DNA of 62,434 nucleotides from Candidatus Pacearchaeota archaeon. Lineage in GTDB: Archaea > Nanobdellota > Nanobdellia > Pacearchaeales > GW2011-AR1. Of the stretch, positions 1 through 53,032 are shown piece by piece (position 1 is the stretch's first letter; each line of letters opens with the position of its first letter). The notes beneath the pieces were generated by a model, which made no database searches, was not told where the DNA came from, and saw nothing but the letters and a program-made list of their open reading frames with translations. Location of the stretch: positions 1 to 62,434 of the forward strand of contig JAGVXA010000012.1 of the NCBI GenBank assembly GCA_018304025.1. The letters are read 5' to 3'. The position numbers were made by a program, and so were the translations under genes.

Positions 1-76
1 AAATCAGAAAGTTCATCATGCAATTTAAGGACGCCGTCCTCCGCCGAAGGCGGATTTTTTGCGAAGCAAAAAACCT

Positions 77-547
77 TTAGGGGACGGAGGATGTCACATT
101 TTTATAGAAAAGAGTTATTTCGCTCCGCCTTTCTGAAATTGCAATCGCGAGAGTTTTGGTTTGTTTTGCTGTTCTTTCTGCTGCCTTGTGCCTTGTGCCT
201 GTTTCAGCTGATTTTATCTGGCTGCTTGGAGTCAGCAAAACGTTTGCGGCGTTTATTCTTTTCATGTCTTTTGACAAGATTAACGCGCCGTCCATTTTTG
301 ACAGTTCGATTAATTTTTGCGGAGTGAATTTGCAATTTATTCTGAATCCTCCGTCGATTATCGGGAGAAGAGACTCGTTTTCTATTACTATCAGCGCGCC
401 CTTTCCGGTTTTTAACGCGCCGTCGATTGCTGTTCTGAAGCTGGTTCCTGGAGCGACTAATTTTAGAATTGACAGGAATTCTTCCTGGGAAACTTTTTCA
501 TTAGCTGTTTTTACTAATAAATCCTGCACATCTCTTTTTTGTTCCAT
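77..547 (-). CDS. DisA-type diadenylate cyclase (DAC) domain protein without the DisA linker/HhH half
   Basis: ORF 77..610 trimmed to the first ATG at 547 (156 aa). Collinear with the N-terminal DAC domain of DisA: LVAPGT, DGGF, KMDGALIL, SAETGTRHKAAERTAKQT, AIAISERRSEITLF. The stop follows directly. Confidence 0.75.
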   Translation of the reverse strand: MEQKRDVQDLLVKTANEKVSQEEFLSILKLVAPGTSFRTAIDGALKTGKGALIVIENESLLPIIDGGFRINCKFTPQKLIELSKMDGALILSKDMKRINAANVLLTPSSQIKSAETGTRHKAAERTAKQTKTLAIAISERRSEITLFYKNVTSSVP

Positions 548-667
548 GGTTATTGGAAAAATGTTTATTATATAAAGATTTATCTTTTGATGGTTAAATC
601 CGTTCGCCAAGATGTCGAACGAGAGATTTATCTTAAGTTTTATATAGACGTTTTGTTTGGTTACGTG

Positions 668-2122: not shown

Positions 2123-3867
2123 GATTTATTATGCTCGCGTTCGTGCTTCGGATGCTCGTGTCCGATGGCTTTTCTTTCCCTGATTCTTTTTAGATGCTCG
2201 ATTTTTTCCTTGTTGAATTTTTCCTGGCTCAAGCCGAGTGTTTTAATCAATTGCGCTGTGTGATACCCGCCGAGAAAATGGGGCATGATTATATAATTTG
2301 CTCCTTCTCCGTAAAGTTTTACTGCGTCGTCTAATTGGTGAGAAACGCCGATAAAGACAGCTTCTTTGTTTAATCTTCTTAATTGTTTCAGCAATAAAAG
2401 ATTTGTTTCAAGCTCTGGAATTGTAGAGATAATCATTTTTACTTTTGAGAAATTTAATTCGTCGAGCAGTTCCAAGTCGCCGGCGTCGCCATACTGGCAG
2501 TCAACTCCTTTTTTTTCGAGATACTCGATTGTATTCGGATTGTAGTCGACTATTAGAGTTTTTTTGTTTATTTGCTTCAATGCTTTCAGCAAGTCATAAC
2601 CAATTCTATTGTACCCGAATAAAATTATTTCGTATTGTTCTTTTCCGGAATGAAATGTTTCGTCTATTTGTTTTCCTTTTCTTTCAAATATTGTTAAAGG
2701 TTTGGAGAAAATAGAATAAAGTTTATTTGAATAGTTTATTGCGTAAGTTGAGCCTGCGATTGTTATTAATCCCGCAACTGTTATCAACGACAAAATTTCA
2801 TTTGATAACGGCTCTAAATGTCCGAGTTTAATTCCTAAGAGCAGGATGACGAAAGAGAATTCGCTGATTTGCGCGAGGGACAAGCCGACAAGAAAACCTG
2901 TTCTTTTTGTGTAATTCATTATGCCCATAAAAATCATCATGATTAGCGGTTTGCCGACGAGAACCAGCAGAGAAATTATTGCGATTTGGGGGATGTATTT
3001 GGCGAGATTTACGAAAGTCATTTGAGAGCCGAGGATTACAAAAAATAAGAGAAGGAAGAAATCTCTTAATGGACGCATTCTGGAACTAATCTCGTATCTG
3101 TACGGCGACAGCGAGAGAGTTATTCCGGCCAAGAGCGCTCCGATTTCAATTGAGGAACTGAAATAGTAAAATGTGCTTGCAATGGCAAGACACCAGCCCA
3201 GCGAGAATAAGAGCAGGAGCTCCTGAGATTTGGCTGCGAATTTTGTCAAGTGCGGAAGAACAAAAATTCCGACGACAAACGTTCCGATAATTAACGCAGC
3301 GCCTTTTAGAAGATATTCCAATGTGTTCGTGCTGAGAGACAATGCTTGAACTGAAAGAGAAGAGATTATCAAGACTACCAAGATTGCAATCAAGTCCTGG
3401 ACTATGAGAAAACCGACTGCGAGCTTTCCGTGGAGAGATTCTAGTTCTCCTTTGTCAGAAAATAATTTCATTACAATAACTGTGCTGCTGAACGCCACGG
3501 CAATTGCAACGTACGCAGATATAACTGACGAGAAATTGAAAAGGAGTTTTGATATTGCGAATCCTGCGGCGAAGGTTAGAATTATCTGTCCGAGCCCGCC
3601 GATTAGCGCGACTTTGCCGATGTTCTTTATTACCTTTGGATTTAGGTTCAAGCCGACCATAAACAAAAGAAGAGCTATGCCGAGAGTTGAGAGAGTGGAA
3701 ATGTTTGATTCTGCGCCGATTAAGTTCAGAAAATAAGGGCTGACTAAAATTCCTGTCAGAATATATCCGATAATTATCGGCTGTTTTAGAAATTTTAGGA
3801 TTAGCGAGATGATTAAAGCTATTGCTACAACAGCGCTCAATTCCAGAAAGAAATTTTCTATTACCAT
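2119..3867 (-). CDS. Kef-type cation:proton antiporter (CPA2) with C-terminal RCK/TrkA-N domain
   Basis: 582 aa. Polytopic N-terminal two-thirds typical of the Na/H-exchanger family, then a Rossmann-like YEIILFGYNRIGYDLLKAL segment. Confidence 0.8.
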   Translation of the reverse strand: MVIENFFLELSAVVAIALIISLILKFLKQPIIIGYILTGILVSPYFLNLIGAESNISTLSTLGIALLLFMVGLNLNPKVIKNIGKVALIGGLGQIILTFAAGFAISKLLFNFSSVISAYVAIAVAFSSTVIVMKLFSDKGELESLHGKLAVGFLIVQDLIAILVVLIISSLSVQALSLSTNTLEYLLKGAALIIGTFVVGIFVLPHLTKFAAKSQELLLLFSLGWCLAIASTFYYFSSSIEIGALLAGITLSLSPYRYEISSRMRPLRDFFLLLFFVILGSQMTFVNLAKYIPQIAIISLLVLVGKPLIMMIFMGIMNYTKRTGFLVGLSLAQISEFSFVILLLGIKLGHLEPLSNEILSLITVAGLITIAGSTYAINYSNKLYSIFSKPLTIFERKGKQIDETFHSGKEQYEIILFGYNRIGYDLLKALKQINKKTLIVDYNPNTIEYLEKKGVDCQYGDAGDLELLDELNFSKVKMIISTIPELETNLLLLKQLRRLNKEAVFIGVSHQLDDAVKLYGEGANYIIMPHFLGGYHTAQLIKTLGLSQEKFNKEKIEHLKRIRERKAIGHEHPKHEREHNKS

Positions 3868-4464: not shown

Positions 4465-4586
4465 TCTTTGTTGAAAATAAATTGGATTTCGGCGCGAATT
4501 GTCGTAACAGTGCGTAATTTGTTAGAAATTCACTTCGTGAATTTCGCGCGCCGAAATTAATTGTTTTTGATTTTTTCAACAAAGCC
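4465..4586. mobile_element. MITE, short copy (TIR CTTTGTTGAAAA / TTTTCAACAAAG) carrying one CGGCGCG palindromic unit
   Basis: 12-13 bp terminal inverted repeats at 4466-4477 and 4573-4584. Flanked by the direct repeat atttttctag (4455-4464 and 4587-4596). Near-identical to the outer parts of 32265..32586. Confidence 0.7.
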
Positions 4587-6482: not shown

Positions 6483-6634
6483 ACGCGATGCAATTGGACT
6501 CGCCTGTTTTTATTGGCAAGTCTTATCTGTAAAATTCACTCTGTTTCGGCACGCAATTGGATTTTGCTTCGCAAAATCTTTTCTGTAAAATTCGCTCCGC
6601 GAATTTGGCGTGCCGATGCGAATTTGCATCGCGT
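6483..6634. mobile_element. nested palindromic repeat units (outer arms CGCGATGC/GCATCGCG, inner unit 6547..6615 with arms CGGCACGC/GCGTGCCG)
   Basis: The inner 69-nt unit is identical to 22075..22143. The outer unit shares the AATTGGAC..GGCAAGTC..GTAAAATTC architecture with 36204.., 52768.. and 56035.. Confidence 0.65.
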
Positions 6635-7110: not shown

Positions 7111-7277
7111 GCTCCTATAGTCTAGTGGTCAAGGACGTCGCCCTCTCGACTGCCGAGATTTAAGTCGTTGAGATGATAATCTCTGCTCATCTTTGAGCAG
7201 GCACTTTGTTTAGCGCCTTGAGAATTTCTCAGGCACGGAGAACGGCGGAAACCCGAGTTCGAACCTCGGTAGGAGCA
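7111..7277 (+). tRNA. tRNA-Glu(CTC) with ~94-nt anticodon-loop intron (~7149..7242)
   Basis: GCTCCTA-TA-GTCT..GGAC-G-TCGCC-CTCTCG[intron]-GGCGG-AAAC-CCGAG-TTCGAAC-CTCGG-TAGGAGC-A. Confidence 0.85.
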
Positions 7278-7908: not shown

Positions 7909-8005
7909 GCCTCTATAGCTCAGCGGTAGAGTACTACCTTGGTAGAAAGATTGAAAATTTATTCCAAAAAGGTAGGGGTCCCGAGTTCAAGTCTCGGTAG
8001 AGGCT
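7909..8005 (+). tRNA. tRNA-Thr(GGT) with 25-nt intron (7945..7969)
   Basis: GCCTCTA-TA-GCTC..GAGT-A-CTACC-TTGGTA[intron]A-GGTAG-GGGTC-CCGAG-TTCAAGT-CTCGG-TAGAGGC-T. Confidence 0.85.
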
Positions 8006-12224: not shown

Positions 12225-14864
12225 TTATTGATTTTTAGCAGAGTTTTCGCCCTGCCATTCTTCAACGTCTGCTAATTCGATTTCGTTTGTTGTCTCTTCA
12301 ATAAAAGAATCAGAGTCAATTGGAATTGAATCGTTTAAAACCGGAATGTCTGAGTTATCTTCGGGTTCTGAAGTTTCGTATTCTGATTCTATTTTAGGAG
12401 TTTGTTCTGTTTCGAATCTTTCTGGTTCGTCGTTTTCCAATGCCTGCAAAATTAGATTTTCCATATCCTGATCATTTATTACTTCTTCGTGTTTTGCTGA
12501 TGCCTGCGTTTGATTAAAAAAAGATTTTTTTTGAGCAGGTTCAATTGATTCTGTTTCATTTTTTTCGGGAGGTTCTAGCGACTGTTTAGCTGACTGGATG
12601 AATTCCTGCGCTTGTTCTTTTTCTATGTTGTATACAATTTCGCTTATTTCACGGGCTGCGTCTGCGTTCACAGAGATTGAACTGATTCCTTCTCTGGCTA
12701 GAATCCTCGCCATCTCCGGACGCGAGCCTGCCTGCCCGCAAATGCTCGTTTCAACATTATATTTTTTACAAACCCGGATAACGTGCTGAATTGAACGGAC
12801 AACTGCGGGATGGGTCTCATCGAATATTCCTGCGACTTCGTCGTTGTTTCTGTCGATAGCTAAAGTGAATTGCGTCAAGTCGTTGGTGCCGAATGAAATG
12901 AAATCGATTCCTTCCTGGCAAAGCTCTTCAATTATCTGGACAGCTGCCGGTGTTTCAACCATAACTCCGATTTTAATATTCGACGGTATTCCTATTTCAT
13001 CAGCTATTTTTTTTGTTTCTTTTATTTCCTGGACGCTGATTACAAGAGGAATCATTAATCCTATTTTTTTGTTTGGGAAGAACTCGGCAACTTCTTTCAC
13101 GGCTGTTAATTCTGCTTTTAGAATTTCGGGATGCTTTAGGCTAAATCTGATTGCGTGATTTCCCATCATAGGGTTTGATTCGTCATCTTTTGGAGCGCCT
13201 TCGAGATTTGAATACTCGTCTGTTCTTATGTCTGAAGAACGCACCCAAATTTCTTCAAAGGGTTCTGCAATTTTTTTAAGATTTGAAGAAAGCAATTTAA
13301 CATATTCTTTCATGTCTCCTTTTTTGACAAAATAAAACGGATGTTTTCCGCCGATTGCTATAATTCCTTCAAGTCTTGTCAAGCCGATGCTTTTCACTTC
13401 TGATTTTGATGCTCTTAACGCGCCTTCAGGCAAGTCCGCGATAACTTTAATTTTTATTTTTGTTCCGTGAATTATCGGGAGGACTTCTTTCAGTTTAGTT
13501 TTTCCTTTTCCTTCATAAACTTTTCCGACGTTGCCGTCGATAGTTACAATCTGCCCGTCTTTTAGAATTTTTGTTGCTTCGTCTGTTCCGACGACTGCAG
13601 GAATTCCCATTTCCCTGCTCACGATTGCTGCGTGGGAAGTGATTCCGCCTTCGTCTGTAATTATTGCCGCGGATTTTTGCATTGCGACCACCATATCTGG
13701 ATTTGTCATTTCTGTGACTAGAACATCTCCGTTCTGGATTTTTTCTAAATCTTTCATTTCTCTGACAATTTTAACTGGGCCGGATGAAACTCCCGGCGAA
13801 GCTGCCAAGCCGGAAAGAATTGGCTCGCCCTCGACGGTTTCTGTTGATTCCTTGAATTTTGTTGTAATTGGCCTTGATTGAACAATATAAATTCCACCAG
13901 CGTCAATCGCAAATTCGATGTCCTGCGGTTTTTTGTAGTGCTCTTCCAGTTTTTGCGCAAGCTGCGCCAAAGTTTTAATTTCGTAGCTGCTTAAAACCTG
14001 TTGATTGCTTCTTTCTGGAGTTAGCTTGATTGTTTCATTTTTTCCTTCTTCATTTTTTACAATTGCAATTTTTTTATTTGCGATTTTTGTTTCAAGTATT
14101 TTGAAGTTTTCCAAATCTTCTGAAACTACGTGGTGGTCTGGCTTAATCTGCCCGGAAACAATTCCTTCGCCGAGCCCCCAAACCGCCTCGATTATTATGT
14201 GGTCTGCTTTTGTCGTCGGGTTTTGCGAGAACATGACGCCGGATTTTACAGAGTTCACCATTTTTTGGATAACGACAGCGAGCAAAGAGTTTTCGTGGGC
14301 AAATCCTTTTTTTGTCCTGTAATAAGTTGCTCTTGGCGTGAAGAGTGAAGACATGCATTTTTTTACTTTTTCCAGTAATTCTTTGTTTCCTCTGACATTC
14401 AAAAAAGATTCCTGCTGTCCTGCGAAAGATGCGTCTGCCAAATCTTCTGTTGTTGCGCTGGAACGGACAGCCACGAACGGCGCCTCATCTTTTTCTAAAA
14501 GATTATTTGCAGTATCTTTTTGCGGCTCGCTTAAAATTTCGTATGCTTCCAAGATTTGCGTTTCTATTTCTTGCGGCAAAGACTGGGACTCTATTGTTCT
14601 TCTTATTTCTTTAGTTGCTTCGTTTAGCTCTGCTGTGTTTTCCTCGTCGAGGTTTGCCAAAATTTCTTTGATTCTCGCGCTTATTCCTGTTTTTTCTATG
14701 AAGTGCTGATAAGCCTGCGCTGTTATGACAAAACCTGGTGGAACAGGAACATTTAGATTGTACATTTCTGCCAACGAGGCGCCTTTCCCGCCTGCTATTG
14801 CTATGTCTTTATTTGATAATTCAGAAAACCATTTGACAAATTGGGCTTCCTCTTTTTTTAGCAT
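12225..14864 (-). CDS. ppsA: phosphoenolpyruvate synthase (pyruvate, water dikinase) with ~115-aa acidic C-terminal extension
   Basis: N-terminal AIAGGKGASLAEM, phospho-His segment GGITSHAAIVSREMGIPAVVG, and a C-terminal PEP-utilising TIM barrel (FISFGTNDLTQ). Confidence 0.93.
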   Translation of the reverse strand: MLKKEEAQFVKWFSELSNKDIAIAGGKGASLAEMYNLNVPVPPGFVITAQAYQHFIEKTGISARIKEILANLDEENTAELNEATKEIRRTIESQSLPQEIETQILEAYEILSEPQKDTANNLLEKDEAPFVAVRSSATTEDLADASFAGQQESFLNVRGNKELLEKVKKCMSSLFTPRATYYRTKKGFAHENSLLAVVIQKMVNSVKSGVMFSQNPTTKADHIIIEAVWGLGEGIVSGQIKPDHHVVSEDLENFKILETKIANKKIAIVKNEEGKNETIKLTPERSNQQVLSSYEIKTLAQLAQKLEEHYKKPQDIEFAIDAGGIYIVQSRPITTKFKESTETVEGEPILSGLAASPGVSSGPVKIVREMKDLEKIQNGDVLVTEMTNPDMVVAMQKSAAIITDEGGITSHAAIVSREMGIPAVVGTDEATKILKDGQIVTIDGNVGKVYEGKGKTKLKEVLPIIHGTKIKIKVIADLPEGALRASKSEVKSIGLTRLEGIIAIGGKHPFYFVKKGDMKEYVKLLSSNLKKIAEPFEEIWVRSSDIRTDEYSNLEGAPKDDESNPMMGNHAIRFSLKHPEILKAELTAVKEVAEFFPNKKIGLMIPLVISVQEIKETKKIADEIGIPSNIKIGVMVETPAAVQIIEELCQEGIDFISFGTNDLTQFTLAIDRNNDEVAGIFDETHPAVVRSIQHVIRVCKKYNVETSICGQAGSRPEMARILAREGISSISVNADAAREISEIVYNIEKEQAQEFIQSAKQSLEPPEKNETESIEPAQKKSFFNQTQASAKHEEVINDQDMENLILQALENDEPERFETEQTPKIESEYETSEPEDNSDIPVLNDSIPIDSDSFIEETTNEIELADVEEWQGENSAKNQ

Positions 14865-21602: not shown

Positions 21603-23327
21603 CTATTCATATAAAATTCTCTTCTGCATTTTTTTCTCTGAGAAAGTTTTAGGAACGTAAATTTTCTTTTTTGTTCTGGGGTTCATTTCAGTATAATACA
21701 TGCAGGTTGAAACAGTCATTGGCGTCGGAGTAAATATCTGGATCTTCTCGGCGTTTTTAATTTTTTTCATGTAGCTTTTCAGCTCTTCTGCTTCTTTCAT
21801 AGAACTTCCCGGATGCGCTGCCATAAAATAGAAACTTAAATCTCCGCAATCAAGTTTTCTGAATTTTCTGATAAATTCATCGAGGTTTCCTCCAGATTTG
21901 TTCATTAATTTCAAAATTTCTGAATTAACATGCTCGGGAGCAATTTTTAACCTTCCTGAAATGTGATGTTTTAATTCTTTCAGATATTCGTCGTTAGCAA
22001 GTTCGTATCTTATTCCGCTTCTTATAAAAATCTTTTTTATTCCTTTAACTTTAGGTGTATAATTCGTTTTGTTTCGGCACGCAATTGGATTTTGCTTCGC
22101 AAAATCTTTTCTGTAAAATTCGCTCCGCGAATTTGGCGTGCCGAAGTTAATCTTTCTCGCTTTTTTTAAAAGTTCAATAAGTTTTTTATTGCTTCTGTCA
22201 AGTTTTTTGCATTCAAGACAGTTGTTTTTGCAGACGTATCTGGCTGGGCAGTCCATTCCGTACATATTTGCAGACGGGCCGCCGAAATCGTCGATGTTTC
22301 CCTTAAAATTCGGCAGAGAGGTTATATATTTTAGTTCTCTCAAAATAGAATCTTCGCTTCTTGAAATTATTTTGTCTCCTGAAGTCAGTCTTAGAGAACA
22401 GAAATTACAATTTCCTATACATCCTCGGTGCGTAACGACGCTGAATTCAAAACCTTTCATTTCTTTCAGGTTAATTTTTCTGCTAAACGGAAGCTCGTAG
22501 TATTTATCCAAATCTTCGGATTTATATTCGGGAAACATATACTGGAGAATGTAAAAGTTCCCTGTTTTTTGCGCAAGGTTTTCTTGATTAGAAAACATAT
22601 TTTGCATATCGCAGAATTTTTCTTTTGATTCGAGAACTTCTTCGTGGGACGGGAGTATTTTTGGTATATAATCTATTTCGTTTTCGGCACGCAATTGGAC
22701 GCCAATTGTAGCGGCTGGCGTCTTGTCTTTATGCAAAATTCCGGAGGAATTTTGCCGGCGTGCCGAATTAACTTGAAAATTCTTTGGAATTTCTCTTGTT
22801 CTGATGCATGTTCCTTTGATTCCTGAAATTTCTTTTTTATTTTTTATTCTCTCGGCGATTTCAAGCACTTGTTTTTCTCCATTTCCGTAGACGAGGATAT
22901 CTGCGCGCGTGTCAAAAAGGATTGATTTTCTCAGAGAGTTGCTCCAGTAATCGTAATGGGTGAATCTTCTTAATGTTGCTTCTGTTCCGCCGAGGACGAT
23001 TTTAGAATCTTTGAAATATTTTCTTACCCAGTTTGCGTAAACAATTACTGCCCTGTCCGGAACTGTTTTTTCGAAATTGAGATTTTCGTCGTTTTCCCTC
23101 GGCCTGTTAAGAGCAGAATAATTTCTTAACATTGAATCAATGCTGCCTGAAGTTATTCCGAAAAATAATTTTGGCTTTCCTAGACATAGAATATCTTTTT
23201 CGTTTTTTGGAGAGGGGATTATTCCGACTTTGTATCCTTCGCTTTCGAGGACTCTTTTTAGTATTGCTACTCCGCATAAAGGATGATCGTAGTATTCTGG
23301 TGTGATGAAAATAATGTCGTAATTCAT
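21603..23327 (-). CDS. ygiQ: YgiQ-family radical SAM protein carrying two in-frame palindromic-repeat insertions
   Basis: N-terminus YDIIFITPEYYDHPLCGVAIL, radical SAM CIGNCNFC, KGIKKIFIRSGIRYEL, HISGRLKIAPEH. All are collinear with UPF0313/YgiQ. Confidence 0.85.
   Translation of the reverse strand: MNYDIIFITPEYYDHPLCGVAILKRVLESEGYKVGIIPSPKNEKDILCLGKPKLFFGITSGSIDSMLRNYSALNRPRENDENLNFEKTVPDRAVIVYANWVRKYFKDSKIVLGGTEATLRRFTHYDYWSNSLRKSILFDTRADILVYGNGEKQVLEIAERIKNKKEISGIKGTCIRTREIPKNFQVNSARRQNSSGILHKDKTPAATIGVQLRAENEIDYIPKILPSHEEVLESKEKFCDMQNMFSNQENLAQKTGNFYILQYMFPEYKSEDLDKYYELPFSRKINLKEMKGFEFSVVTHRGCIGNCNFCSLRLTSGDKIISRSEDSILRELKYITSLPNFKGNIDDFGGPSANMYGMDCPARYVCKNNCLECKKLDRSNKKLIELLKKARKINFGTPNSRSEFYRKDFAKQNPIACRNKTNYTPKVKGIKKIFIRSGIRYELANDEYLKELKHHISGRLKIAPEHVNSEILKLMNKSGGNLDEFIRKFRKLDCGDLSFYFMAAHPGSSMKEAEELKSYMKKIKNAEKIQIFTPTPMTVSTCMYYTEMNPRTKKKIYVPKTFSEKKMQKRILYE
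22075..22143. mobile_element. 69-nt palindromic unit (CGGCACGC arms) inside the ygiQ coding sequence
   Basis: Identical to 6547..6615. Translated in-frame as GTPNSRSEFYRKDFAKQNPIACR. Confidence 0.75.
22685..22765. mobile_element. 81-nt palindromic unit (CGGCACGC arms) inside the ygiQ coding sequence
   Basis: Same arms and AATTGGAC start. Hairpins gacgcc/ggcgtc and caaaattcc/ggaattttg. Translated in-frame as ARRQNSSGILHKDKTPAATIGVQLRA. Confidence 0.7.
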
Positions 23328-24420: not shown

Positions 24421-24463
24421 ATGGGCCTGAAGAGAATCGAACTCCTGACTACTCGGTGTAAAC
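24421..24463 (-). repeat. exact copy of the tRNA-Val 3' half (anticodon loop to 3' end), att-like
   Basis: 43 nt identical to 25731..25773. No matching 5' half follows. Confidence 0.75.
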
Positions 24464-24514
24464 AAATGTATCCTAAAGGTAACTTTTTGTAACGAGCTAC
24501 AGAGTTTATGTTTT

Positions 24515-25555
24515 TTATTTAGGATTACAGTAAGATTCTTCTAATTCCTTAAGATAATATTTTGACCAAACAAGTGGACTGTCCATTACCCTCTGGTTAT
24601 CAAATCTTTTTAGATAGGTTTTGCCATCTGAAAACAAATGTTTTCTAAAAACAACTCCAGAGTAACCTTCAATAAAAGTAGGGTCTACCTCGCCTTTGCT
24701 ATACCAGTATCCGCATACATTAATATTTCCACGCACATTCTCTGGAATTAATTCTTTTACCTCAAGGCTATCAAGATAAAAAATATACTGTTTTTGTGGC
24801 AATCCTCCAAGTACAAGTTCATAAATTACAGCATCTCCTTCTGGAGACCATCTCGTAAATCCATAATTGTATCCCCAGCCATCATCCCAACCGCTTGAAT
24901 TGTTTACTGGAATTTTTGTATTAAACGCTTCTTCAAAAACTTTTTTCTCTTCCCTAGTTTCTAAATCGTAAATGAATATCTCGACATGCTGAGTCTGATT
25001 TTTATAAATATCCTCTCCGTAAGTGTATCGTACCCTATCAAATAAAATTTTATCTTCCGTAGAGGATATTCCTAATAAATTACTGATATTTTTACTTACT
25101 ATAAAAAATTCTTGGTTATCAAGGTCATAGCCATAAATATTCTTTTCTGGTCGTGCAAGAATGCCAGTCTTATTATTCACGTATGTTTCAAATGAAGACT
25201 CTTCTGTTTCAAAAAATAAGAATTTCTTGTCTTTAGACAAATGGAGACCAGTTGTACTAACAATATAACAATAATCTAACTTTGTTAAAAGCATTTCTTT
25301 TTCAGAATTAATATTTTTTAGATAAACTTGGCAAGAGCGATCATTATATTTGTCTGTTATTCCTTCTCTTTTAGTAAACAAAACATTTTCTCCGTCTAAA
25401 GTTATTCTTTGAAAAGAATCCCCTTTTTGCCAATTAATATAAAGAAACGGCTTTTCCAAAAGTGGACCTGGAGTTATTAGAGAATAAAACACAACTGAAA
25501 ATATAGCAACCAAAATCAAAATTATAAAAAAGATAATAATCAATTTTTTGCCCAT
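24515..25555 (-). CDS. hypothetical N-terminally membrane-anchored protein
   Basis: The track start is TTG. The ATG at 25555 gives MGKKLIIIFFIILILVAIFSVVF. Confidence 0.6.
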   Translation of the reverse strand: MGKKLIIIFFIILILVAIFSVVFYSLITPGPLLEKPFLYINWQKGDSFQRITLDGENVLFTKREGITDKYNDRSCQVYLKNINSEKEMLLTKLDYCYIVSTTGLHLSKDKKFLFFETEESSFETYVNNKTGILARPEKNIYGYDLDNQEFFIVSKNISNLLGISSTEDKILFDRVRYTYGEDIYKNQTQHVEIFIYDLETREEKKVFEEAFNTKIPVNNSSGWDDGWGYNYGFTRWSPEGDAVIYELVLGGLPQKQYIFYLDSLEVKELIPENVRGNINVCGYWYSKGEVDPTFIEGYSGVVFRKHLFSDGKTYLKRFDNQRVMDSPLVWSKYYLKELEESYCNPK

Positions 25556-25598
25556 GGAGGATGAAAACAAATCTAATTTATAAATCCTTTGAAAATGA

Positions 25599-25650
25599 GC
25601 GGCCCCGAAGAGAATCGAACTGGTGAATACTCGGTGTAAACAAATGTATC
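25599..25650 (-). repeat. degenerate third copy of the tRNA-Val 3' half
   Basis: gcggccccgaagagaatcgaactggtgaatactcggtgtaaacaaatgtatc. It shares the extra aaatgtatc extension with the copy at 24421. The T-stem is broken. Confidence 0.5.
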
Positions 25651-25731
25651 ATAAAGATTCTATTATGTTACATTTTACCAATTTCTTGGTGTGATTCGCT
25701 TGAACCGAGCAATCTATCCCTTTAATTTATA

Positions 25732-25802
25732 TGGGCCTGAAGAGAATCGAACTCCTGACTACTCGGTGTAAACGAGTCATTTTGCCACTAGACTACAGGC
25801 CC
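25732..25802 (-). tRNA. tRNA-Val(TAC)
   Basis: GGGCCTG-TA-GTCT..-ACTCG-TTTACAC-CGAGT-AGTC-AGGAG-TTCGATT-CTCTT-CAGGCCC-A. 71 nt, weak D-stem. Confidence 0.85.
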
Positions 25803-25895
25803 ATATTATTCATGAGAAATTAGCGGTTTTAAATTTATTGTTTGAAAAATTATTTATGACAATCTTTAAATAACTCTTGTTTTTATTTCACTTGA

Positions 25896-26039
25896 GCGAT
25901 ATTAGTTAAGTGGCAGAACGACACGTTGCCAATGTCCAACTTTCTTTAGAAAAGAAAGTTCGGCGCTCAAAGAAACTAATATAGTCTTTGAGAGCAGAGC
26001 AAAAACGTGTAAACCGGGGTTCGATTCCCCGATATCGCA
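25896..26039 (+). tRNA. tRNA-Gly(GCC) with 73-nt intron (25932..26004)
   Basis: GCGATAT-TA-GTT..AAC-G-ACACG-TTGCCA[intron]A-CGTGT-AAAC-CGGGG-TTCGATT-CCCCG-ATATCGC-A. Confidence 0.85.
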
Positions 26040-29119: not shown

Positions 29120-29269
29120 TCCCCCCACCCAGATTCGAACTGGGGATCTTCCGGGGTCTGCTTTCGCAAACCGTTCAATGGCCGGCTTGTCACGTTTCAT
29201 TCTAATCCAACAGGAATGTCCACGCTAGTTTTCTACAGCCAGACGCTCTAACCACTGAGCTATGGGAGG
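29120..29269 (-). tRNA. tRNA-Tyr(GTA) with ~77-nt intron (~29155..29232)
   Basis: CCTCCCA-TA-GCTC-AGTGGTTA-GAGC-G-TCTGG-CTGTAG[intron]-CCGGA-AGATC-CCCAG-TTCGAAT-CTGGG-TGGGGGG-A. The C1-G72 pair is typical of archaeal tRNA-Tyr. Confidence 0.85.
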
Positions 29270-32264: not shown

Positions 32265-32586
32265 GCTTTGTTGAAAATATTTTTTAGAGTTATCTTGCTC
32301 CCCACCCACTCGCGATCACGTTCGTCATTTGCTTGTTTTTTACTCGAACGTGATGCGCTCGCCACGCCCTACTTGTCCAAATCTTCTTCGCTTCGCTCAG
32401 AAGAAAAACTTTCGTTTTTCATTCGTCCGCCAAGATGTCGAACGAAAGATTTGGTTATTTGGTGCAAGATAACTAAATTAAATTGGATTTCGGCGCGAAT
32501 TGTCGTAACAGTGCGTAATTTGTTAGAAATTCACTTCGTGAATTTCGCGCGCCGAAATTAATTGTTTTTGACTTTTTCAACAAAGC
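32265..32586. mobile_element. MITE, long copy: same TIRs as 4465..4586, with a further ~187-nt palindromic element (32288..32474) nested inside
   Basis: Perfect 13-bp TIR gctttgttgaaaa/ttttcaacaaagc. 11-bp direct repeat cccttacgaag at 32254-32264 and 32587-32597. Confidence 0.75.
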
Positions 32587-32589
32587 CCC

Positions 32590-34736: not shown

Positions 34737-36131
34737 ATGGGAAACATTCATGAAATAAAACAGACGGGGAAGATGCTTGTGCCTGGAATTGTTTTTGCGT
34801 CGGATAAACTTTTTGAAGATATGAAAAAAGACAAGACGCTTGAACAAGTTAAAAACGTAGCTCAGCTTCCAGGAATTATCGACAAAAGCATTGCGATGCC
34901 TGACGCGCATGAGGGCTATGGATTTTGTATTGGTGGTGTTGCTGCTTTTGACGTCGAGAAAGGAGTTGTTTCTCCGGGCGGCGTTGGATATGATATTAAT
35001 TGCTCGGTTCGGCTGCTTCGGACTAATCTAAAATCTTCTGATGTCAAAAACTGGAAAGAAATTTTGCATTCGCTTTTTCGTTGCGTGCCGTCTGGTGTCG
35101 GGCAGGGCTCGAAATTAAAATTAAGCGACGCGGAACTTAATGAAGTTTTGAGCAACGGCGCGCAGTGGGCTGTTGAAAAAGGATACGGCGTTAAGGAAGA
35201 TTATTTGCATACAGAAGATGAAGGGAGATTGAATGGGGGGAATCCGAAAGATATTTCGCAAAGGGCTCGGGCTAGAGGGAAAGGGCAGTTGGGGACATTG
35301 GGGGCGGGGAATCATTTTTTGGAAATTCAAGTTGTTGATGAAGTTTTTGACGAGGAGATTGCTAAAACATTTGGATTGAAAAAAGGAGAAGTTACAATAA
35401 TGGTTCATTGCGGCTCTCGGGGGCTTGGGCATCAAGTTGCTTCGGATTACATTCAAGAGATGGAGAAGAAGATTGGAGTTGCTGGATTGCCGGATAGAGA
35501 ATTAGTCAATGCGCCGATTAAATCTGAACTCGGCGGAAAATATTTATCGGCGATGGCGTGCGCTGCGAATTTTGCGTTTGCGAATAAACAATTAATTACG
35601 CATTGGATTAGAGAGGATTTGAAGCATTATTTTCCGAAGATAAAAATTGAAGTTGTCTATGATGTCTGCCATAATATTGCTAAATTCGAGAAGCATTTTG
35701 TTGATGGGCATGATAAAGAAGTTTTGGTTATGAGGAAAGGAGCTACTCGGGCTTTTGGACCTGGGCGGGCGGAGATTCCTGCGGATTATCGTTCAGTTGG
35801 ACAGCCTGTTATTTTACCTGGCTCGATGGGAACTTCTTCTTATGTTTTAGTTGGTACTAAGGAATCTGAAAAATTAAGCTGGGGTTCGACAGCGCATGGC
35901 GCAGGGAGATTGATGAGCCGCTCTGCTGCGAAGAAAAAATTGAATGCAGGCGATGTTAAACGGAAGATGAGTGAGCAGGGGATTATTTTGGAGTCTGGTT
36001 CTACTGCTGGAATTGTTGAAGAAGCTGCTGAGGCGTACAAAGATGTTGATGAAGTTGTGCGGGTGTCTGATGAGTTGGGGATTGGGAAAATGGTTGTTAG
36101 ATTAAAGCCGTTGGCTGTGATGAAGGGATAA
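34737..36131 (+). CDS. rtcB: RNA-splicing ligase RtcB
   Basis: MPDAHEGYGFCIGGV, GYDINCSVR, GAGNHFLE, HCGSRGLGHQ, HGAGR. Confidence 0.93.
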   Translation: MGNIHEIKQTGKMLVPGIVFASDKLFEDMKKDKTLEQVKNVAQLPGIIDKSIAMPDAHEGYGFCIGGVAAFDVEKGVVSPGGVGYDINCSVRLLRTNLKSSDVKNWKEILHSLFRCVPSGVGQGSKLKLSDAELNEVLSNGAQWAVEKGYGVKEDYLHTEDEGRLNGGNPKDISQRARARGKGQLGTLGAGNHFLEIQVVDEVFDEEIAKTFGLKKGEVTIMVHCGSRGLGHQVASDYIQEMEKKIGVAGLPDRELVNAPIKSELGGKYLSAMACAANFAFANKQLITHWIREDLKHYFPKIKIEVVYDVCHNIAKFEKHFVDGHDKEVLVMRKGATRAFGPGRAEIPADYRSVGQPVILPGSMGTSSYVLVGTKESEKLSWGSTAHGAGRLMSRSAAKKKLNAGDVKRKMSEQGIILESGSTAGIVEEAAEAYKDVDEVVRVSDELGIGKMVVRLKPLAVMKG

Positions 36132-37826: not shown

Positions 37827-38561
37827 ATGGCAATTAATAAATTAATTATTTTAAAGAACAAAGAGGAGGCGGCTAGGCGCGCTGCAGAAATTTTTGTCGA
37901 GGCGATTCAACGAAAACCTAATCTTGTTTTAGGCTTGCCGACGGGAAAAACGTTTGTTCCGATTTATCGCGAGATTGTTAAATTGTGCGGGAAAAAGAAA
38001 ATTAGCTTTGCTGGAGTTAAAACTTTCAATTTGGATGAATATTTTGGTTTGAAATTTGGAGACAAAAGAAGTTTTAGATATTATATGAATAGAAATTTTT
38101 TTAGCAAGGCTGGTATGGGGGAAGGAAAGATATTCATGCTAAACGGCGACGTTAAAGATTTTCGGAGAGAATGCTTGGATTACGAGCGGGAGATTAGAAA
38201 AGCCGGCGGAATTGATTTATTGTTTTTGGGTATTGGTTTGAACGGACATATCGGCTTTAACGAGCCGGGCTCTTCGTTTGCAAGCAGAACTCGACGAGTT
38301 AAATTAACAGAGAGCACGCGGAAATCAAATGCTGTCGGAGTTCCTGGTTATGCTTTGACGATGGGGATTGGAACTATTTTGGGGGCGCGGAAAATTGTTT
38401 TAGTAGCGACGGGAAGAAATAAATCTTTGGTTGTTCGGAAAATTATTAATGGAGAAATTACTACAAGAGTTCCGGCTTCTGCTTTGAGGAGACATAAAAA
38501 TACGACAGTGATATTGGATAAAGATGCTGCTTCTGGCTTGAAGAATAATAAGAAGATTTAA
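37827..38561 (+). CDS. nagB: glucosamine-6-phosphate deaminase
   Basis: LGLPTGKTFVPIY, FNLDEY, LLFLGIGLNGHIGFNEPGS. Confidence 0.8.
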   Translation: MAINKLIILKNKEEAARRAAEIFVEAIQRKPNLVLGLPTGKTFVPIYREIVKLCGKKKISFAGVKTFNLDEYFGLKFGDKRSFRYYMNRNFFSKAGMGEGKIFMLNGDVKDFRRECLDYEREIRKAGGIDLLFLGIGLNGHIGFNEPGSSFASRTRRVKLTESTRKSNAVGVPGYALTMGIGTILGARKIVLVATGRNKSLVVRKIINGEITTRVPASALRRHKNTTVILDKDAASGLKNNKKI

Positions 38562-38585
38562 TAAATTGTATTAATACTAATTTGA

Positions 38586-40541
38586 ATGAAAAAAGGCGTG
38601 CTATTTGTTTTTGGAATTTTTGTTTTGGTTTATTTGGTTGAGAATGTTTCTGCTGACTGCGTTGGTGGGTGGACAGAAGGAAATAATATTTCACAATATG
38701 GAATAACTTGGTTTTTTGACAAGCCATATCAATGCGGGACTTTTGTCAATGGAGATTATTGGGTTGTTGGACCAGCAAATATAATAAAAATAATTCCGGA
38801 ATCTGTAGCAATCAATGAATCTGGAATTACTAACAGAATTATTAACGGAGCCATGATAAATATTAATTCTTCGATAAAACAAATAGGTTATGACAGTGCG
38901 ATAACTTCTTTTAGATACAATGAAAGTCTTAACGCTGCAAGAAAAAATGGCGCCCAAATTTCATCTGCGAACTTTTTGGAGTTACCTGCCAATACTTCTC
39001 TGGTTTCTACGATTAGCTTAAATTCAACTTTTTATGATTTTGGGGTCACGCAGGGTTATGTGCTAAAAACAGCTGCGATTTTGACAGTGCTAGATAAAGT
39101 TCCGGCGGAAGGAAGTTTTAGGCCGGCATATTGCGGAAACGATAAAACAATAAAATTTAATGAAAATCAATTGAACTATAATTTGCTGTCAAACTTAGAT
39201 AGAAAAAATTATACTAGCAGTTTGTCTTTGAAAATGTTAAATGAAACTGAAAGCCGCACCGAATCTTCTCCGGCGGAAAGACAGCTAAGCAGACCATGGC
39301 TTGACCACTTGGGGACTGGAATGGGCGATGTAATAATGCCGTATGAAAATGGAAATCGCTACCCAGGGTATCGAAATCAGCATATTCAGATTAGCGCGAT
39401 GATGCTGAATCTTGACTGGACAGGATCTCCAGGTTTTGTAAGCAATGAACAATTCAAGAGAGATTTGTTAGTTGAGAATGTTCAATTGGGAATTGATCTT
39501 TACGGAGTTTACAAATTTAATACCTATTTAGGATGGGATGCAGAGGGGGGGCACGGAATCAGCAGAAAATTTCCGATTATATTTGCGGGGACGATGTTAG
39601 ACGGTTCACAAGCAAACAGCGATGCAAGGGCAATGAAGAATCTTTCATTTTCGCCAGGAATTGAGATTGCTGAAGATCTGCAAATTTTTTATGTTAATCA
39701 AAGCACAATTGACGCCCAGAATAACAACTATAGTTCCAGCAATAATTGCAATCCTCAAAGAATGATACCTTGGGGAGACCCATTAAATGTTTGTGACTCG
39801 AGTGAATGCAATGGAGATGCTTGTGGTAATGCAGTTGGTCCGGATCCTCGTTCTACGTATATCATTCCATACGCTCAAACAGATTTTGGACTTCCTGAAT
39901 GGAAAATTGGCCCAGCACATCCAGGAACTTTTAACAGAGCATGGCGCAGTTACTATCGGCAAGTTTCTCAGGGTTATTTTCCAGGGATAGCACTCGCCGT
40001 AAGAATAATGAATTTAACTAAAGAATGGGATCATAATGAATTTTTAGACTACATGGACAGATATGTGGAAATTGAAAGAGAGTCTCGAAGAAGACTTGTG
40101 AATGCTGGTGGAAGTATGAATTATGGCGAATGCATTTATAATTATACGACGCATGTTTGCGAACCTGGAATTGAATTTAACATTCCTGGGACACCTCAAG
40201 AAGATATTCGTGGAAATGAAGTTCACGAAATTCTTGCAAGACATTACGCTTTTAGCTCTTCGCTTGTTGAAAATCTTTGGAATGATTACAGAGAGAGCTA
40301 TGGTTGTGTTTGGGAATATGATAATCTTACGGATTTGAATTCAAAGTGGCATTACAATTGTTCGGGCGCGCTGGTGCGATGCGAGGGGCACGCGTCTGTA
40401 GTCGGCGATTTAGTTGCGCAATGCAGTGATTATCCTAATCAGCGCGCATTGGAAGATAACCCGTGTGGATTTGGATGCGAAGGAATGGCAATGCCGGTTG
40501 AATCGTGCACAATAACAAAAGCATATTGGCAAATTGTGTAA
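38586..40541 (+). CDS. secreted protein of unknown family (paralogue of 43711..45360) ending in CTITKAYWQIV
   Basis: Signal peptide. The shared N-terminal block GNNISQYGITWFFDKPYQCGTFVNGDYWVVGP and later blocks (GGHGISRKFPIIFAG) match the paralogue. Confidence 0.7.
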   Translation: MKKGVLFVFGIFVLVYLVENVSADCVGGWTEGNNISQYGITWFFDKPYQCGTFVNGDYWVVGPANIIKIIPESVAINESGITNRIINGAMININSSIKQIGYDSAITSFRYNESLNAARKNGAQISSANFLELPANTSLVSTISLNSTFYDFGVTQGYVLKTAAILTVLDKVPAEGSFRPAYCGNDKTIKFNENQLNYNLLSNLDRKNYTSSLSLKMLNETESRTESSPAERQLSRPWLDHLGTGMGDVIMPYENGNRYPGYRNQHIQISAMMLNLDWTGSPGFVSNEQFKRDLLVENVQLGIDLYGVYKFNTYLGWDAEGGHGISRKFPIIFAGTMLDGSQANSDARAMKNLSFSPGIEIAEDLQIFYVNQSTIDAQNNNYSSSNNCNPQRMIPWGDPLNVCDSSECNGDACGNAVGPDPRSTYIIPYAQTDFGLPEWKIGPAHPGTFNRAWRSYYRQVSQGYFPGIALAVRIMNLTKEWDHNEFLDYMDRYVEIERESRRRLVNAGGSMNYGECIYNYTTHVCEPGIEFNIPGTPQEDIRGNEVHEILARHYAFSSSLVENLWNDYRESYGCVWEYDNLTDLNSKWHYNCSGALVRCEGHASVVGDLVAQCSDYPNQRALEDNPCGFGCEGMAMPVESCTITKAYWQIV

Positions 40542-41281: not shown

Positions 41282-42499
41282 ATGAAAATAGTTGTGATGC
41301 ACCCATATCCGTTAGAAAGCGACGGGCAGAGCCTGCAGGGAGATTATCTTTTTCGCGGACTGAAAGAAATCGGAGAAGAAGTCATGCAGTGCGACAGAGG
41401 AAATAGTTTTCACAAGACGTGGGTTTACGAGCATTTCAAGCCAGACGTTGCAATCGGAGTTGGATTTTGGGCAGATACTCCAGAATTAATTCATGCTCCG
41501 CAGGAAGACGGCGTGCTGCCTGTTCCGTGGTTTAATGCCGACGGGTGGGTGGCGAATTACCAAGACGATTTGAACAAACTTCCTCTGATTGTTGCTACAA
41601 GCAACTGGGTTAAATCAACTTACATACGAGACGGCGTGAAAGGAGACAATATTGAAGTATGCTCGATTGGATTTGATCCTGCTGTTTTTTATCCTCGGCA
41701 AAAAAATGATCCTGCTGTTTTGAAATTAAGAGAGATGCTGGAAATTAAGGAAGATGAAAAAATGATTCTTACTGCGGGCGGGGATGTTACTTCGAAAGGG
41801 GCGCAGGAAATGTTGCAGGCGCTTGCGAAGATAGACAAAGAATTTCCGAAATGGAAATATGTCTGCAAGACAATGGATAGTTTTTCTGCGAAGAATCACG
41901 GCAAGGAAGAAAAATCTTTGATAAAAGAATTAGGGTTGGATAAGCACAAGATAAAATATCTTTCTGAAGATTTTTCTCCAGACTTTATGGCTCTTCTTTT
42001 GAACGCCTGCGATATTTACGCTGCTCCGTCGCGATTGGAGGGATTTGGAATGATTCAGGTTGAGGCGATGGCTTGCGGGAAACCTGTTATTTCAATAAAT
42101 GTCGGCGGGCCGAGGGACACGATTGTCCACGACAAAACAGGATTTTTAGTTGATGTTGCGCATGAGATTAAGCTGGAGAAAGAATGGGTTTACAAGCACA
42201 TGGGCTTCAAGGAAAAAATGATGATTGATTTTCCGATTCCGAAGACGTTTGCTTACCGAGCTGATATTAATCAGTTAGCGTCGTGCACTTTGAAATTAAT
42301 GAAGGATGATGTTTTGCGGGAGAAGATGGGGCTTAACGCAGCCAAACACGCTTTAGAGAATTTTCATTACAAAGTTATTGCGAGGAACATGAGGGATTTG
42401 ATTATGCGAAGAGTTTTCGACGGGAATGGGGAGAAGATTGCGCAGGGGATTAAGAATACTGTTGTGAAGAAGGAAGAGAATGGCAACGGGTTAGAGTAA
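41282..42499 (+). CDS. GT4-family glycosyltransferase
   Basis: PSRLEGFGMIQVEAMACGKPVIS..GGPRDTIVHDKTGFLV. Starts 1 nt after the deacetylase stop. Confidence 0.8.
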   Translation: MKIVVMHPYPLESDGQSLQGDYLFRGLKEIGEEVMQCDRGNSFHKTWVYEHFKPDVAIGVGFWADTPELIHAPQEDGVLPVPWFNADGWVANYQDDLNKLPLIVATSNWVKSTYIRDGVKGDNIEVCSIGFDPAVFYPRQKNDPAVLKLREMLEIKEDEKMILTAGGDVTSKGAQEMLQALAKIDKEFPKWKYVCKTMDSFSAKNHGKEEKSLIKELGLDKHKIKYLSEDFSPDFMALLLNACDIYAAPSRLEGFGMIQVEAMACGKPVISINVGGPRDTIVHDKTGFLVDVAHEIKLEKEWVYKHMGFKEKMMIDFPIPKTFAYRADINQLASCTLKLMKDDVLREKMGLNAAKHALENFHYKVIARNMRDLIMRRVFDGNGEKIAQGIKNTVVKKEENGNGLE

Positions 42500-43600
42500 A
42501 ACTTTTTTCTTTTTCAAAGATTCATACGCAAGAATATACATTCCCGCGTTCCACGCCTGATTGCCTTCTTTTGACAAAGAGTTTGGCTTTCCTGTTTTGC
42601 CGTCGAGCCATTCGCTGAATAATGGATTTTGCAAATTGGCTTTTGCAAGTTTTTCTAATTGACTCTTTGCTTCTGAGAATTTTTTCTGCTTGATTAATGC
42701 GAGGATGTAGAAGCCGCCGATGTAAGTCCAGATGCCGCTGTTCGAATATTGGTAGGGCGTGCGCGCGCCGCAGTCGTTAAAATAATCCTGCCAGTCCTTG
42801 CTTCCTTTTTTTATAGGGGGATAGATTGTTTTTATTGGAAATGGTTTTGCGATTTTTTCGTTTTGAATGTGCTGCAGAATTTTTTTAGCTTGTTGTTTTG
42901 AAGCGACATTGAAAATAACTGCTAATAAGTTGCCGAGCGAGTCGAACCATTCTCCTTTTTCCTGATAGGAGTTATGGTTTTTCCAGCGCCAGGGCAGGTA
43001 AAACTTTTCTTTCCAGAGAGAAACATCGCTTATTTCGTTGATTCTTTTTTTTAGTTTTTCTGCCTGCTTTTTTTTATTTGCTAATTTCAGAGCCTTGTAG
43101 TAAAGCGCCTGCGTGTTTATCGTGTGCCCGTATCTGTGGGGAAAGGCGTCCTGCCAATCTGTCGTCGGGAGCTGCTCCAGCATGATGTCTTCTGTTGTGT
43201 CCTGATAGGAAAGCCAGGTGAATGCTTTTTTGATATTCTTTTTTTGGGAGTTGAATAATTTCGAGTCATTGTATCTTTGCCTGTAAATGTAGTGCCCGAT
43301 TATAAACCAGAGAGTTGAGTCGATTGAAGTGAAGTCGACGTGATGTTTTCGTTTTACGAATTTGTCTACTGCGTTTGGGATTTGCCCTTTTTCGCTTTGT
43401 TCTTTCGCGAGAGTTTTTAACGACGCTGCGAATGTTTTTTTGAAGTTTTTTCCGAGGAGAGATGCGCCTAAAGAGGTTATCATTGAGTCTCTTGCCCAGA
43501 CCATGTCGTAGCCGGGGAAAGCTGCGAAAAATCCGTGGGGTGTTTCGCATTTTTTCAGAACTTTGACTGCTTCGCTGTACGCCCTCTTTGTTTCGTCCAT
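42491..43600 (-). CDS. (alpha/alpha)6-barrel glycoside hydrolase-like protein (GDE_C / neutral-invertase-like)
   Basis: GYDMVWARDSMITSLG near the N-terminus. W-rich helical repeats. An alternative ATG at 43666 would add 22 aa. Confidence 0.6.
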   Translation of the reverse strand: MDETKRAYSEAVKVLKKCETPHGFFAAFPGYDMVWARDSMITSLGASLLGKNFKKTFAASLKTLAKEQSEKGQIPNAVDKFVKRKHHVDFTSIDSTLWFIIGHYIYRQRYNDSKLFNSQKKNIKKAFTWLSYQDTTEDIMLEQLPTTDWQDAFPHRYGHTINTQALYYKALKLANKKKQAEKLKKRINEISDVSLWKEKFYLPWRWKNHNSYQEKGEWFDSLGNLLAVIFNVASKQQAKKILQHIQNEKIAKPFPIKTIYPPIKKGSKDWQDYFNDCGARTPYQYSNSGIWTYIGGFYILALIKQKKFSEAKSQLEKLAKANLQNPLFSEWLDGKTGKPNSLSKEGNQAWNAGMYILAYESLKKKKVLL

Positions 43601-43710
43601 TGTTAAATTAATATTTTGGAGTTTAAATTGTTTTGGGAAAATTGTATAAATATTAATAAAAGTCATATAATAACAAATTTTAATAACTCTCCTTATTATT
43701 AATTTGAAAG

Positions 43711-52767: not shown

Positions 52768-53032
52768 CGCTGCGTGACGCATTTGGACTTTTGTAAGAAC
52801 CCTTCTCGGTTTCTTACCAACTTCCCCTTGCAATACGTTCAAGGCTGATTTTTTGCTGCTGGCAAGTCTTATCAGTAAAATTCGCTCTTGATGCGTCGCA
52901 ATTGGACTTGCCAATTCTTGTCGCTGGCAAGTCTTATCGGTAAAATTCGCTCTTGATGCGTCGCAATTGGACTGTAAAATTCGCTCCGCGAATTTAGCGA
53001 CGCATCAACTCCGCGAATTTAGCGCGCCGAAC
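52768..53032. mobile_element. composite of at least three nested/tandem palindromic units
   Basis: The segment ggcaagtcttatc.gtaaaattcgctcttgatgcgtcgcaattggac occurs twice in tandem. Arms gatgcgtcgc/gcgacgcatc. Terminal gcgaatttagcgcgccga. Confidence 0.6.

Follow-up and report, generated by a model that had tools for sequence, protein, structure and literature searches.

On a 62,434-nt Candidatus Pacearchaeota contig (JAGVXA010000012.1; hereafter the window, with strands given as + or - relative to it), the gene for a YgiQ-family radical-SAM protein contains two in-frame insertions of a short, hairpin-rich DNA repeat. We consider it likely that these insertions are recent, that the repeat is mobile and has been kept in the gene by its translatability, and that it moves in a manner similar to IS200 elements and to palindrome-associated transposable elements (PATEs). 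Specifically, the two segments would have arisen by independent, recent insertions, at the DNA level, of a non-autonomous element in a DPANN (Pacearchaeota-like) host. The unit would move as single-stranded DNA with the help of an IS200/IS605-type Y1 (HUH) transposase acting in trans, a PATE-like route for which a putative enzyme is encoded by the element abutting the left end of the window. Of the copies entering genes, only those with a length divisible by three and without stop codons in the frame of the gene would survive; the survivors would stay in the mRNA and be translated, an outcome matching that of Rickettsia palindromic elements (RPEs).

The YgiQ gene is a single unbroken open reading frame (ORF) of 574 codons, in which Pfam recognises Radical_SAM_N (E 4e-75), Radical_SAM and DUF3362, the domain architecture of YgiQ. 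A database search returned more than 5000 YgiQ relatives, mostly of about 503 aa, and the nearest named ones belong to Pacearchaeota, Woesearchaeota and other DPANN archaea. When the window protein was aligned with 17 and later with 77 orthologues (18 and 78 sequences), two extra blocks, residues 185-222 (QVNSARRQNSSGILHKDKTPAATIGVQLRAENEIDYIP; insert 1) and 394-427 (NFGTPNSRSEFYRKDFAKQNPIACRNKTNYTPKV; insert 2), were seen only here and in a partial copy with 99% identity (P0001). The cluster motif CxxxCxxC (C303/C307/C310) and all invariant residues are intact in these alignments. We also aligned the gene with the DNA of its two nearest orthologues, L001 (76% identity) and L002 (73%), both of which lack the two segments at the protein and the DNA level. 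An earlier interpretation made from the letters alone (the sequence-only reading) had proposed that palindromic units sit in-frame in this gene, and had raised the question of whether orthologues carry homologous residues at both positions; they carry neither block, and the proposal stands.

Comparison with the orthologues also defines the extent of the inserted DNA. Insert 1 consists of TGGTATATAATCTATTTCGTT, an 85-nt core and TTAACTTG, and is flanked in the sense of the gene by AATTTT on one side and AAAATAC on the other, with no target duplication. For insert 2 the boundary can be placed at 22047..22148 or at 22052..22153, an ambiguity of 5 nt, and deletion of 22052..22153 gives back AGAAAAGTTAAAGG, letter-identical to L001. 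Both cores begin with TTCGGCACGC and end with GCGTGCCGAA, form on either strand a 10-bp stem enclosing two hairpins, and reach folding z-scores of -4.5 to -6.5 on both strands relative to dinucleotide shuffles. The junctions defined by the orthologues lie 8 and 21 nt outside the perfectly paired outer stem, and these arm lengths account exactly for the two inserts (21 + 85 + 8 = 114; 21 + 73 + 8 = 102). The sequence-only reading had correctly located the palindromic cores (22075..22143 and 22685..22765; stem to stem, 22073..22145 and 22683..22767) and had placed the 22075 unit, its first insert, between ARK(I) and KGIKK, where we find it as well. However, it equated the inserts with these 69- and 81-nt cores (23 and 26 aa), and the orthologue alignment corrects this to segments of 102 nt (34 aa) and 114 nt (38 aa). 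Its view that the insertion is recent is borne out by an intergenic twin at 6545..6617, which is identical to the insert-2 core with its stems at 72 of 73 positions; 0 of 100 shuffles gave any such match.

The insert-bearing gene is not limited to one assembly. ORFs of 574 aa with the inserts are present in JGI and ENA assemblies from other samples (L187, L188), both inserts are found in a further contig (L003) with two mismatches to the window in 1361 nt, and the gene with both inserts was detected in four groundwater metagenomes. There, sequence depth relative to the flanks was ~17x for the insert-2 core and ~2x for insert 1. An allele with an empty site was found neither in these four DNA metagenomes nor in contigs of the neighbouring gene. 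As a separate observation, L003 (JGI Ga0103682_10034132) matches the window (99.85%) only across the 1361 nt corresponding to window 21853..23213; its flanks, 1..719 and 2081..2961, are unrelated to the window, and this contig is either a chimeric assembly or derived from a rearranged strain.

The two inserts are members of a larger repeat family. A gapped pattern scan of a metagenome collection yielded 68 loci, among which ~26 low-GC contigs (0.31-0.39) represent true relatives and the remaining loci are chance matches of high GC; ~30 distinct family copies reside on the related low-GC contigs. A covariance model built from the aligned family cores (R1) scores eight copies in the window as strong, each of them on the + strand, and finds ~45 further matches on the contigs of the metagenome scan. 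All copies are co-oriented on each of the contigs that carry several of them (13/13). In the + orientation of the window, the unit begins with a ~21-nt arm (consensus TAGTATATAAATTATATGCGT), followed by a 9-10-bp stem (TTCGGCRCG(C)), AATTG and a length-variable hairpin A. The 3' part comprises TTATCNGT, hairpin B (AAAATTnnC, a TTC/TCC loop and GnnAATTTT), the closing stem and a ~8-nt arm, YTAAYTTG. The complete unit measures ~90-116 nt, its arms are asymmetric and its inverted repeat is subterminal; terminal inverted repeats are absent, as one end (TAGTATATAAA...) is not the inverse complement of the other (...YTAAYTTG). RNAalifold analysis of 30 distinct cores revealed compensatory changes at three base pairs of hairpin B and in the outer stem, where 17 sequences have A-U and 11 have G-C; the family is conserved in structure and not in sequence alone. 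Units also occur head-to-tail, or nested within the hairpin-B loop of another unit (6484..6634; 52850..53031). Their left flank (+ orientation) is T-rich, ending for example in TATTTT, AACTT or GACTTT, and often in TTT on metagenome copies, with no strict tetranucleotide. No Rfam family matches the units, and a search of the GTDB species genomes, which do not include the host lineage, with an exact 17-mer and the gapped family pattern returned only chance matches in high-GC bacteria.

The opposite strand of the ~21-nt arm holds TTTATATA, a good archaeal TATA-box consensus facing outward (e.g. in L103, L142 and L153, and at 22662..22682 of the window). Judged by this motif, promoters directed out of the units are in principle conceivable. 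The genes next to the window copies are oriented without a consistent pattern, and we rejected the arm as an outward promoter.

When each copy of the family was checked for an open frame running across it, additional genic cases came to light. A ROK sugar kinase gene in the window carries a unit between codons 3 and 4, giving MNN-QINFGAQKIRSANFHKDNELSRQFAPKKSRVNIP-KVIAVDLGGTN. The Pfam ROK match of this protein begins only at residue 40, and its orthologues (~120) are ~271 aa long and start with MAGNKVIAVDLGGTN or similar. A TTG within the unit provides a possible alternative start, which is the one used in database entry P0121. For a GDE_C/GH100-like glycosidase the window holds the empty site, and a 79%-identical orthologue on contig L126 carries a 90-nt (30-aa) in-frame unit. 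The parallel to RPEs drawn by the sequence-only reading thus extends to two further genes in which the same family sits in-frame. All four genic insertions (114, 102, 102 and 90 nt) are multiples of three, free of stops and in one orientation relative to the gene. Across the family (32 members), frames are open in 15% of cases in the + orientation and in 29% in the opposite one, and nominal unit lengths are divisible by three in 7 of 32; from these counts, a random insertion would leave an ORF intact ~7% of the time. Within the window, for which the count of copies is complete, the three genic copies all preserve the ORF, and none of the five intergenic copies splits a recognisable gene. Given that splicing would not impose such a filter on frame, stops and orientation, the pattern argues that the units are translated rather than spliced out, and we regard translation of the inserts as very probable.

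No solved YgiQ structure was found. An AlphaFold2 model computed from the 78-sequence alignment has a mean predicted local distance difference test score (pLDDT) of 87 and a predicted template modelling score (pTM) of 0.86, with low confidence only at the two inserts. Insert 1 is modelled as coil (pLDDT ~40, residues 190-219) and insert 2 as two short helices (pLDDT 49-68, ~residues 394-427). The latter is placed between helix 381-391 and strand 429-433, that is, in a helix-to-strand connection of the radical-SAM barrel. Barrels of this kind bind their cluster at the face formed by the C-termini of the strands, and insert 2 is predicted to lie on the face away from them. According to the model, the inserts would be excursions of 38 and 34 residues at loops, and this location may be the reason why they are tolerated.

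A candidate source of the mobilising enzyme is located at the left edge of the window. Positions 1..98 are 100% identical to L156:14237-14334, the 3' end of an insertion sequence (IS) of the IS200 type on a related contig (L156) that carries four family copies. When all ORFs of the related contigs and of the window were screened for motifs, a 151-aa ORF on L156 (14307-14762) was the sole transposase candidate (Pfam Y1_Tnp E 1.1e-24, HUH motif, C-terminal YIKNQ). The right end of the IS folds into an outer stem (CCGTCC/GGACGG) with two GAA-loop hairpins, an architecture like that of the units. It also contains a 15-mer hairpin, TTTTGCGAAGCAAAA, which equals hairpin A of the insert-2 unit and is confined to three places in the window. 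At position 98 the IS truncates a gene for a DisA-like diadenylate cyclase (DAC); on a strain contig (L185, 97.5% identical) the IS is absent and the DAC gene is full-length (353 aa). In the metagenomes, depth relative to the flank amounts to 4-5x for the transposase end and ~13x for the right-end module, and at least three other sequences follow position 98/99. Raised depth and several right flanks indicate that the IS is multi-copy and recently mobile. For the units, single-strand transposition of the IS200/IS605 type is suggested by the missing terminal inverted repeats and target duplication, the asymmetric arms, the T-run and the strict co-orientation. A bias in orientation has been linked to replication for IS608. 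Transposition of IS200/IS605 elements involves a single-stranded DNA intermediate and a 4-6-nt targeting sequence, and such elements have spawned transposase-free PATEs in haloarchaea (PMC3119063). On balance, we somewhat favour mobilisation of the units by this Y1 transposase or a sister enzyme.

Several points weigh against this interpretation or parts of it. The outer stem of the IS (CCGTCC/GGACGG) and its terminal arms differ from those of the family, R1 gives no match on the IS right end, and the hairpin loops of the IS copy have a polarity opposite to that of the eight units; the IS at the window edge may not be the cognate transposase source. The preference for T-runs as targets is weak, and at the boundary of insert 2 the sequence would also fit a TTAA microduplication (ambiguous microhomology). 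Regarding translation of the inserts, the argument draws on frame preservation only, the genic screen on short contigs detects ORF-preserving copies only, and the clean census is that of the window alone. None of the words of the YgiQ gene were found in six metatranscriptome runs from the same studies, and no sequence from four of these runs covered the gene. A phmmer search with the ROK insert peptide against 1.8 billion representatives gave 0 matches at E <= 0.001, and the concatenated four insert peptides gave no scored matches, in a search that likewise did not recover the window's own protein. Finally, the location of the inserts in surface loops was judged solely from pLDDT and secondary structure. 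Separately, a piggyBac-like TTAA target duplication, raised by insert 2, was rejected because insert 1 and the insertions in the ROK gene and L126 are without TTAA.

The differences between the IS and the family, that is, the unlike stems and arms and the failure of R1 to match, would fit mobile DNA that is moved by another agent, whether a yet-unidentified recombinase or a process akin to the one behind the SMR-A repeats (~110 bp) of Haloquadratum. A unit of ~100-116 bp, the lack of target duplication and the frequent nesting in hairpin-B loops are indeed SMR-A-like (PMC3119063). We hold such an agent to be possible but rather doubtful: the right end of the IS200 element and the unit of insert 2 agree in architecture and have one 15-nt hairpin in identical form, the strict co-orientation of the copies is a typical trait of single-strand transposition, and the IS right-end module is more abundant than the transposase gene, which would be expected if derivatives consisting only of the ends are mobilised. 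An artefact of repeat-induced misassembly can practically be dismissed. Logan contigs do break at the high-copy insert-2 core, but one of them spans all of insert 1 (piece 22115..23327), and the inserts cannot be ascribed to assembly given that several independent JGI/ENA assemblies (L003, L187, L188) carry the 574-aa ORF or both inserts. It also appears unlikely that the insertions inactivated YgiQ and that the gene is a very young pseudogene whose frame is open by coincidence. The near-identity of the insert-2 core to another copy leaves little time for decay, and YgiQ may be dispensable; however, with a ~0.07 chance of an open frame per random insertion, two such events in YgiQ plus those in the ROK and glycosidase genes make coincidence very unlikely. 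In addition, the invariant YgiQ residues, including C303/C307/C310, are intact, the rest of the protein is modelled with high confidence, and the same allele is fixed across several samples.

The sequence-only reading had offered RNA-level removal as an alternative, in which the units are introns cut from the YgiQ and ROK mRNAs by the tRNA-splicing endonuclease at a structure resembling a motif of the bulge-helix-bulge (BHB) type, followed by joining of the exons by RtcB. Components of such a pathway exist in this lineage: four intron-rich tRNA genes of 97-167 nt and RtcB are encoded in the window, and an EndA homologue adjoins a family copy on L156. Moreover, the sense strand of the units folds very strongly, and archaeal pre-mRNA splicing of this type is known for cbf5 (PMC2738675). 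Nevertheless, we found no support for removal and consider it highly improbable. A scan for helix-bulge-helix-bulge-helix arrangements within 25 nt of either side of the junctions gave 0 for the three window insertions, compared with 0.3-0.9 for random pairs in the same genes. This negative result is weak, because the control on the four intron-containing tRNAs of the window produced no clean call (two without a match, two with ambiguous ones only). Further arguments come from the outer 10-bp stem, which is perfectly paired with the junctions beyond it, and from the genic copies, 4/4 of which have a length divisible by three, no stops and a common orientation; splicing would need none of these. 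A variant in which a DPANN splicing endonuclease of relaxed specificity, together with RtcB, acts on the three-way junction and removes the units from the YgiQ, ROK and glycosidase mRNAs seems about equally improbable; if true, archaea would have a mobile DNA repeat that acts at the same time as an mRNA intron able to spread. The insertion of a translated, mobile DNA repeat thus remains our preferred explanation.

Regarding the splicing machinery itself, the four tRNA genes (7111..7277, 7909..8005, 25896..26039 and 29120..29269) were found by Rfam and missed by ARAGORN, and therefore have long or multiple introns. The absence of a clean BHB call on them suggests non-canonical intron motifs and an endonuclease of relaxed specificity. 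On L156, the EndA gene (12518..13030, -) lies beside a family copy (13106..13176), followed by eIF-1A and the IS200 element, and the lineage thus has the splicing machinery required by the RNA-intron explanation.

Features of the window discussed in the text, with strands relative to the contig
Feature	Position	Strand	Remarks
IS200-type IS, 3' end	1..98	+	2..28, last 8 codons of Y1 transposase (NQKVHHAI*); 29..98, right end
DisA-like DAC gene	77..610	-	truncated by IS
Intergenic copy	4488..4555	+	part of 113-nt repeat also at 32475..32587
Intergenic twin of insert-2 core	6545..6617	+	nested in hairpin-B loop of unit ~6484..6634
YgiQ-family radical-SAM gene	21603..23327	-	574 aa, with both inserts
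Insert 2	within 22047..22153	+	102 nt, 34 aa; absent from L001/L002
Insert-2 core	22073..22145	+	R1 69.5 bits; near-identical intergenic twin
Insert 1	22662..22775	+ (antisense to gene)	complete 114-nt unit, 38 aa; absent from L001/L002
Insert-1 core	22683..22767	+	three-way junction, 10-bp outer stem and two internal hairpins; R1 67.7 bits
Intergenic copy	32489..32556	+	family match
RtcB RNA ligase gene	34737..36131	+	Pfam RtcB E 1e-168; bears only on RNA splicing
GDE_C/GH100-like glycosidase gene	42491..43666	-	empty site for unit in L126 orthologue
ROK sugar kinase gene	48497..49411	-	102-nt unit between codons 3 and 4
Third in-frame genic copy	49301..49402	+	in ROK gene
Intergenic cluster	52850..53031	+	nested/partial units, each in hairpin-B loop of next outer one
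Intergenic copy	56035..56123	+	R1 match

The window contains additional repeated sequences. Three copies of the ~41-45-nt 3' part of tRNA-Val(TAC) are present (24423..24493, 25601..25671 and 25733..25803), and the tRNA is complete only in the last. A 351-aa ORF with no Pfam match (24515..25570, -) lies between the two incomplete ones, an arrangement that looks like att-site duplications of an integrated element. Directly downstream of the ROK gene, a 675-aa protein (49656..51683, +) has thrombospondin type-3 (calcium-binding) repeats encoded by DNA with a 69/138-nt periodicity. Two full-length GAPDH paralogues (51758..52738 and 56755..57735), 5 kb apart, share a 300-nt stretch at 89% identity, and the 5' regions of two large genes without Pfam matches (38545..38773 and 43667..43892) are ~75% identical. 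Both pairs are local segmental duplications in a region rich in glycolysis genes (PGK, TIM, DeoC aldolase, PfkB, ROK, PPDK).

In-frame persistence of selfish palindromic repeats in essential-looking genes is best known from Rickettsia. In our literature search, DPANN archaea yielded no account of such elements, and archaea as a whole only sparse mentions; the coverage of the search was incomplete, and this result is no proof of absence. The system described here is useful in that filled and empty sites can be compared directly, boundaries are defined at the nucleotide level, several independent genic insertions are available, and a plausible IS200-type mobiliser is present in the same genome. 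If confirmed, it would offer a tractable system to study how proteins of genome-reduced archaea gain new peptide segments through single-strand (HUH) transposition. On a practical note, gene callers and orthologue aligners will meet these units as unexplained, lineage-specific inserts of 30-40 aa.

Several known classes of element resemble the units in part. Classical miniature inverted-repeat transposable elements were rejected for want of terminal inverted repeats, with no target-site duplication at insert 1 and only an ambiguous TTAA-like microhomology at insert 2. Inteins were rejected as well; these are self-splicing, exceed 130 aa and carry a nucleophile at the first and the +1 residue, whereas the inserts have 34 and 38 aa, start with N or Q and have K as the residue after their end. 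Similar to the BHB intron of cbf5, the units are structured intervening sequences in archaeal protein-coding genes, and RtcB is encoded here; in contrast to it, they show no BHB motif at their junctions (with the weak control noted above), are constrained by the reading frame, and belong to a dispersed repeat with frequent copies in intergenic DNA as well. With repetitive extragenic palindromic sequences (REPs) and their composites (BIMEs, REPINs), the units share clustering and the association of hairpin repeats with an IS200-like Y1 (HUH) transposase. REPs are extragenic, measure 20-40 nt and bear a GTAG/CGTC tag (PMC3733652, PMC2817692). Compared with REPs as described there, the units are longer (90-116 nt), have no conserved GTAG beside the palindrome and reside inside genes. 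Their candidate transposase is part of a multi-copy IS, whereas the REP-associated tyrosine transposase (RAYT) is single-copy and domesticated. Unit size, genic location, the missing tag and the multi-copy transposase element all speak against a REP/RAYT system, and we rejected it. SMR-A repeats resemble the units in size (~110 bp), a prominent inverted repeat, the lack of target duplication and insertion into the palindromes of other elements (PMC3119063); their inverted repeats are terminal, whereas the stems of the units are subterminal and bordered by unrelated arms.

PATEs and RPEs come closest. PATEs of Haloquadratum walsbyi lack inverted terminal repeats and target duplications, have near-terminal palindromes and are too short to encode a transposase (PMC3119063). 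The units share all of these features, as well as a 5' arm that is longer than the 3' arm. PATEs are related to the ends of IS605-type elements, and the units may be so too, as suggested by architecture and one shared hairpin and not by matching ends. In contrast to PATEs, which have separate left and right hairpins, the units form one composite palindrome across nearly their whole length, and we found no report of in-frame genic persistence of PATEs in the passages of that paper. RPEs, on the other hand, are palindromic repeats integrated in-frame in unrelated genes, where the resulting peptide segment is thought to be compatible with the protein fold (PMC10969869). Like the units, they are short (about 100-150 bp), multi-copy and palindromic, sit in-frame in unrelated housekeeping genes and are open in the frame of the gene, for which we count four cases in three gene families. 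Differences include the host, a DPANN archaeon here and an alphaproteobacterium for RPEs, and the three-way junction, asymmetric arms, strict co-orientation and candidate IS200-type mobiliser of the units. To our knowledge, no mobilising enzyme has been identified for RPEs. The likeness is functional, and we claim no common descent: the nearest counterparts of the units are RPEs in outcome and PATEs in anatomy.

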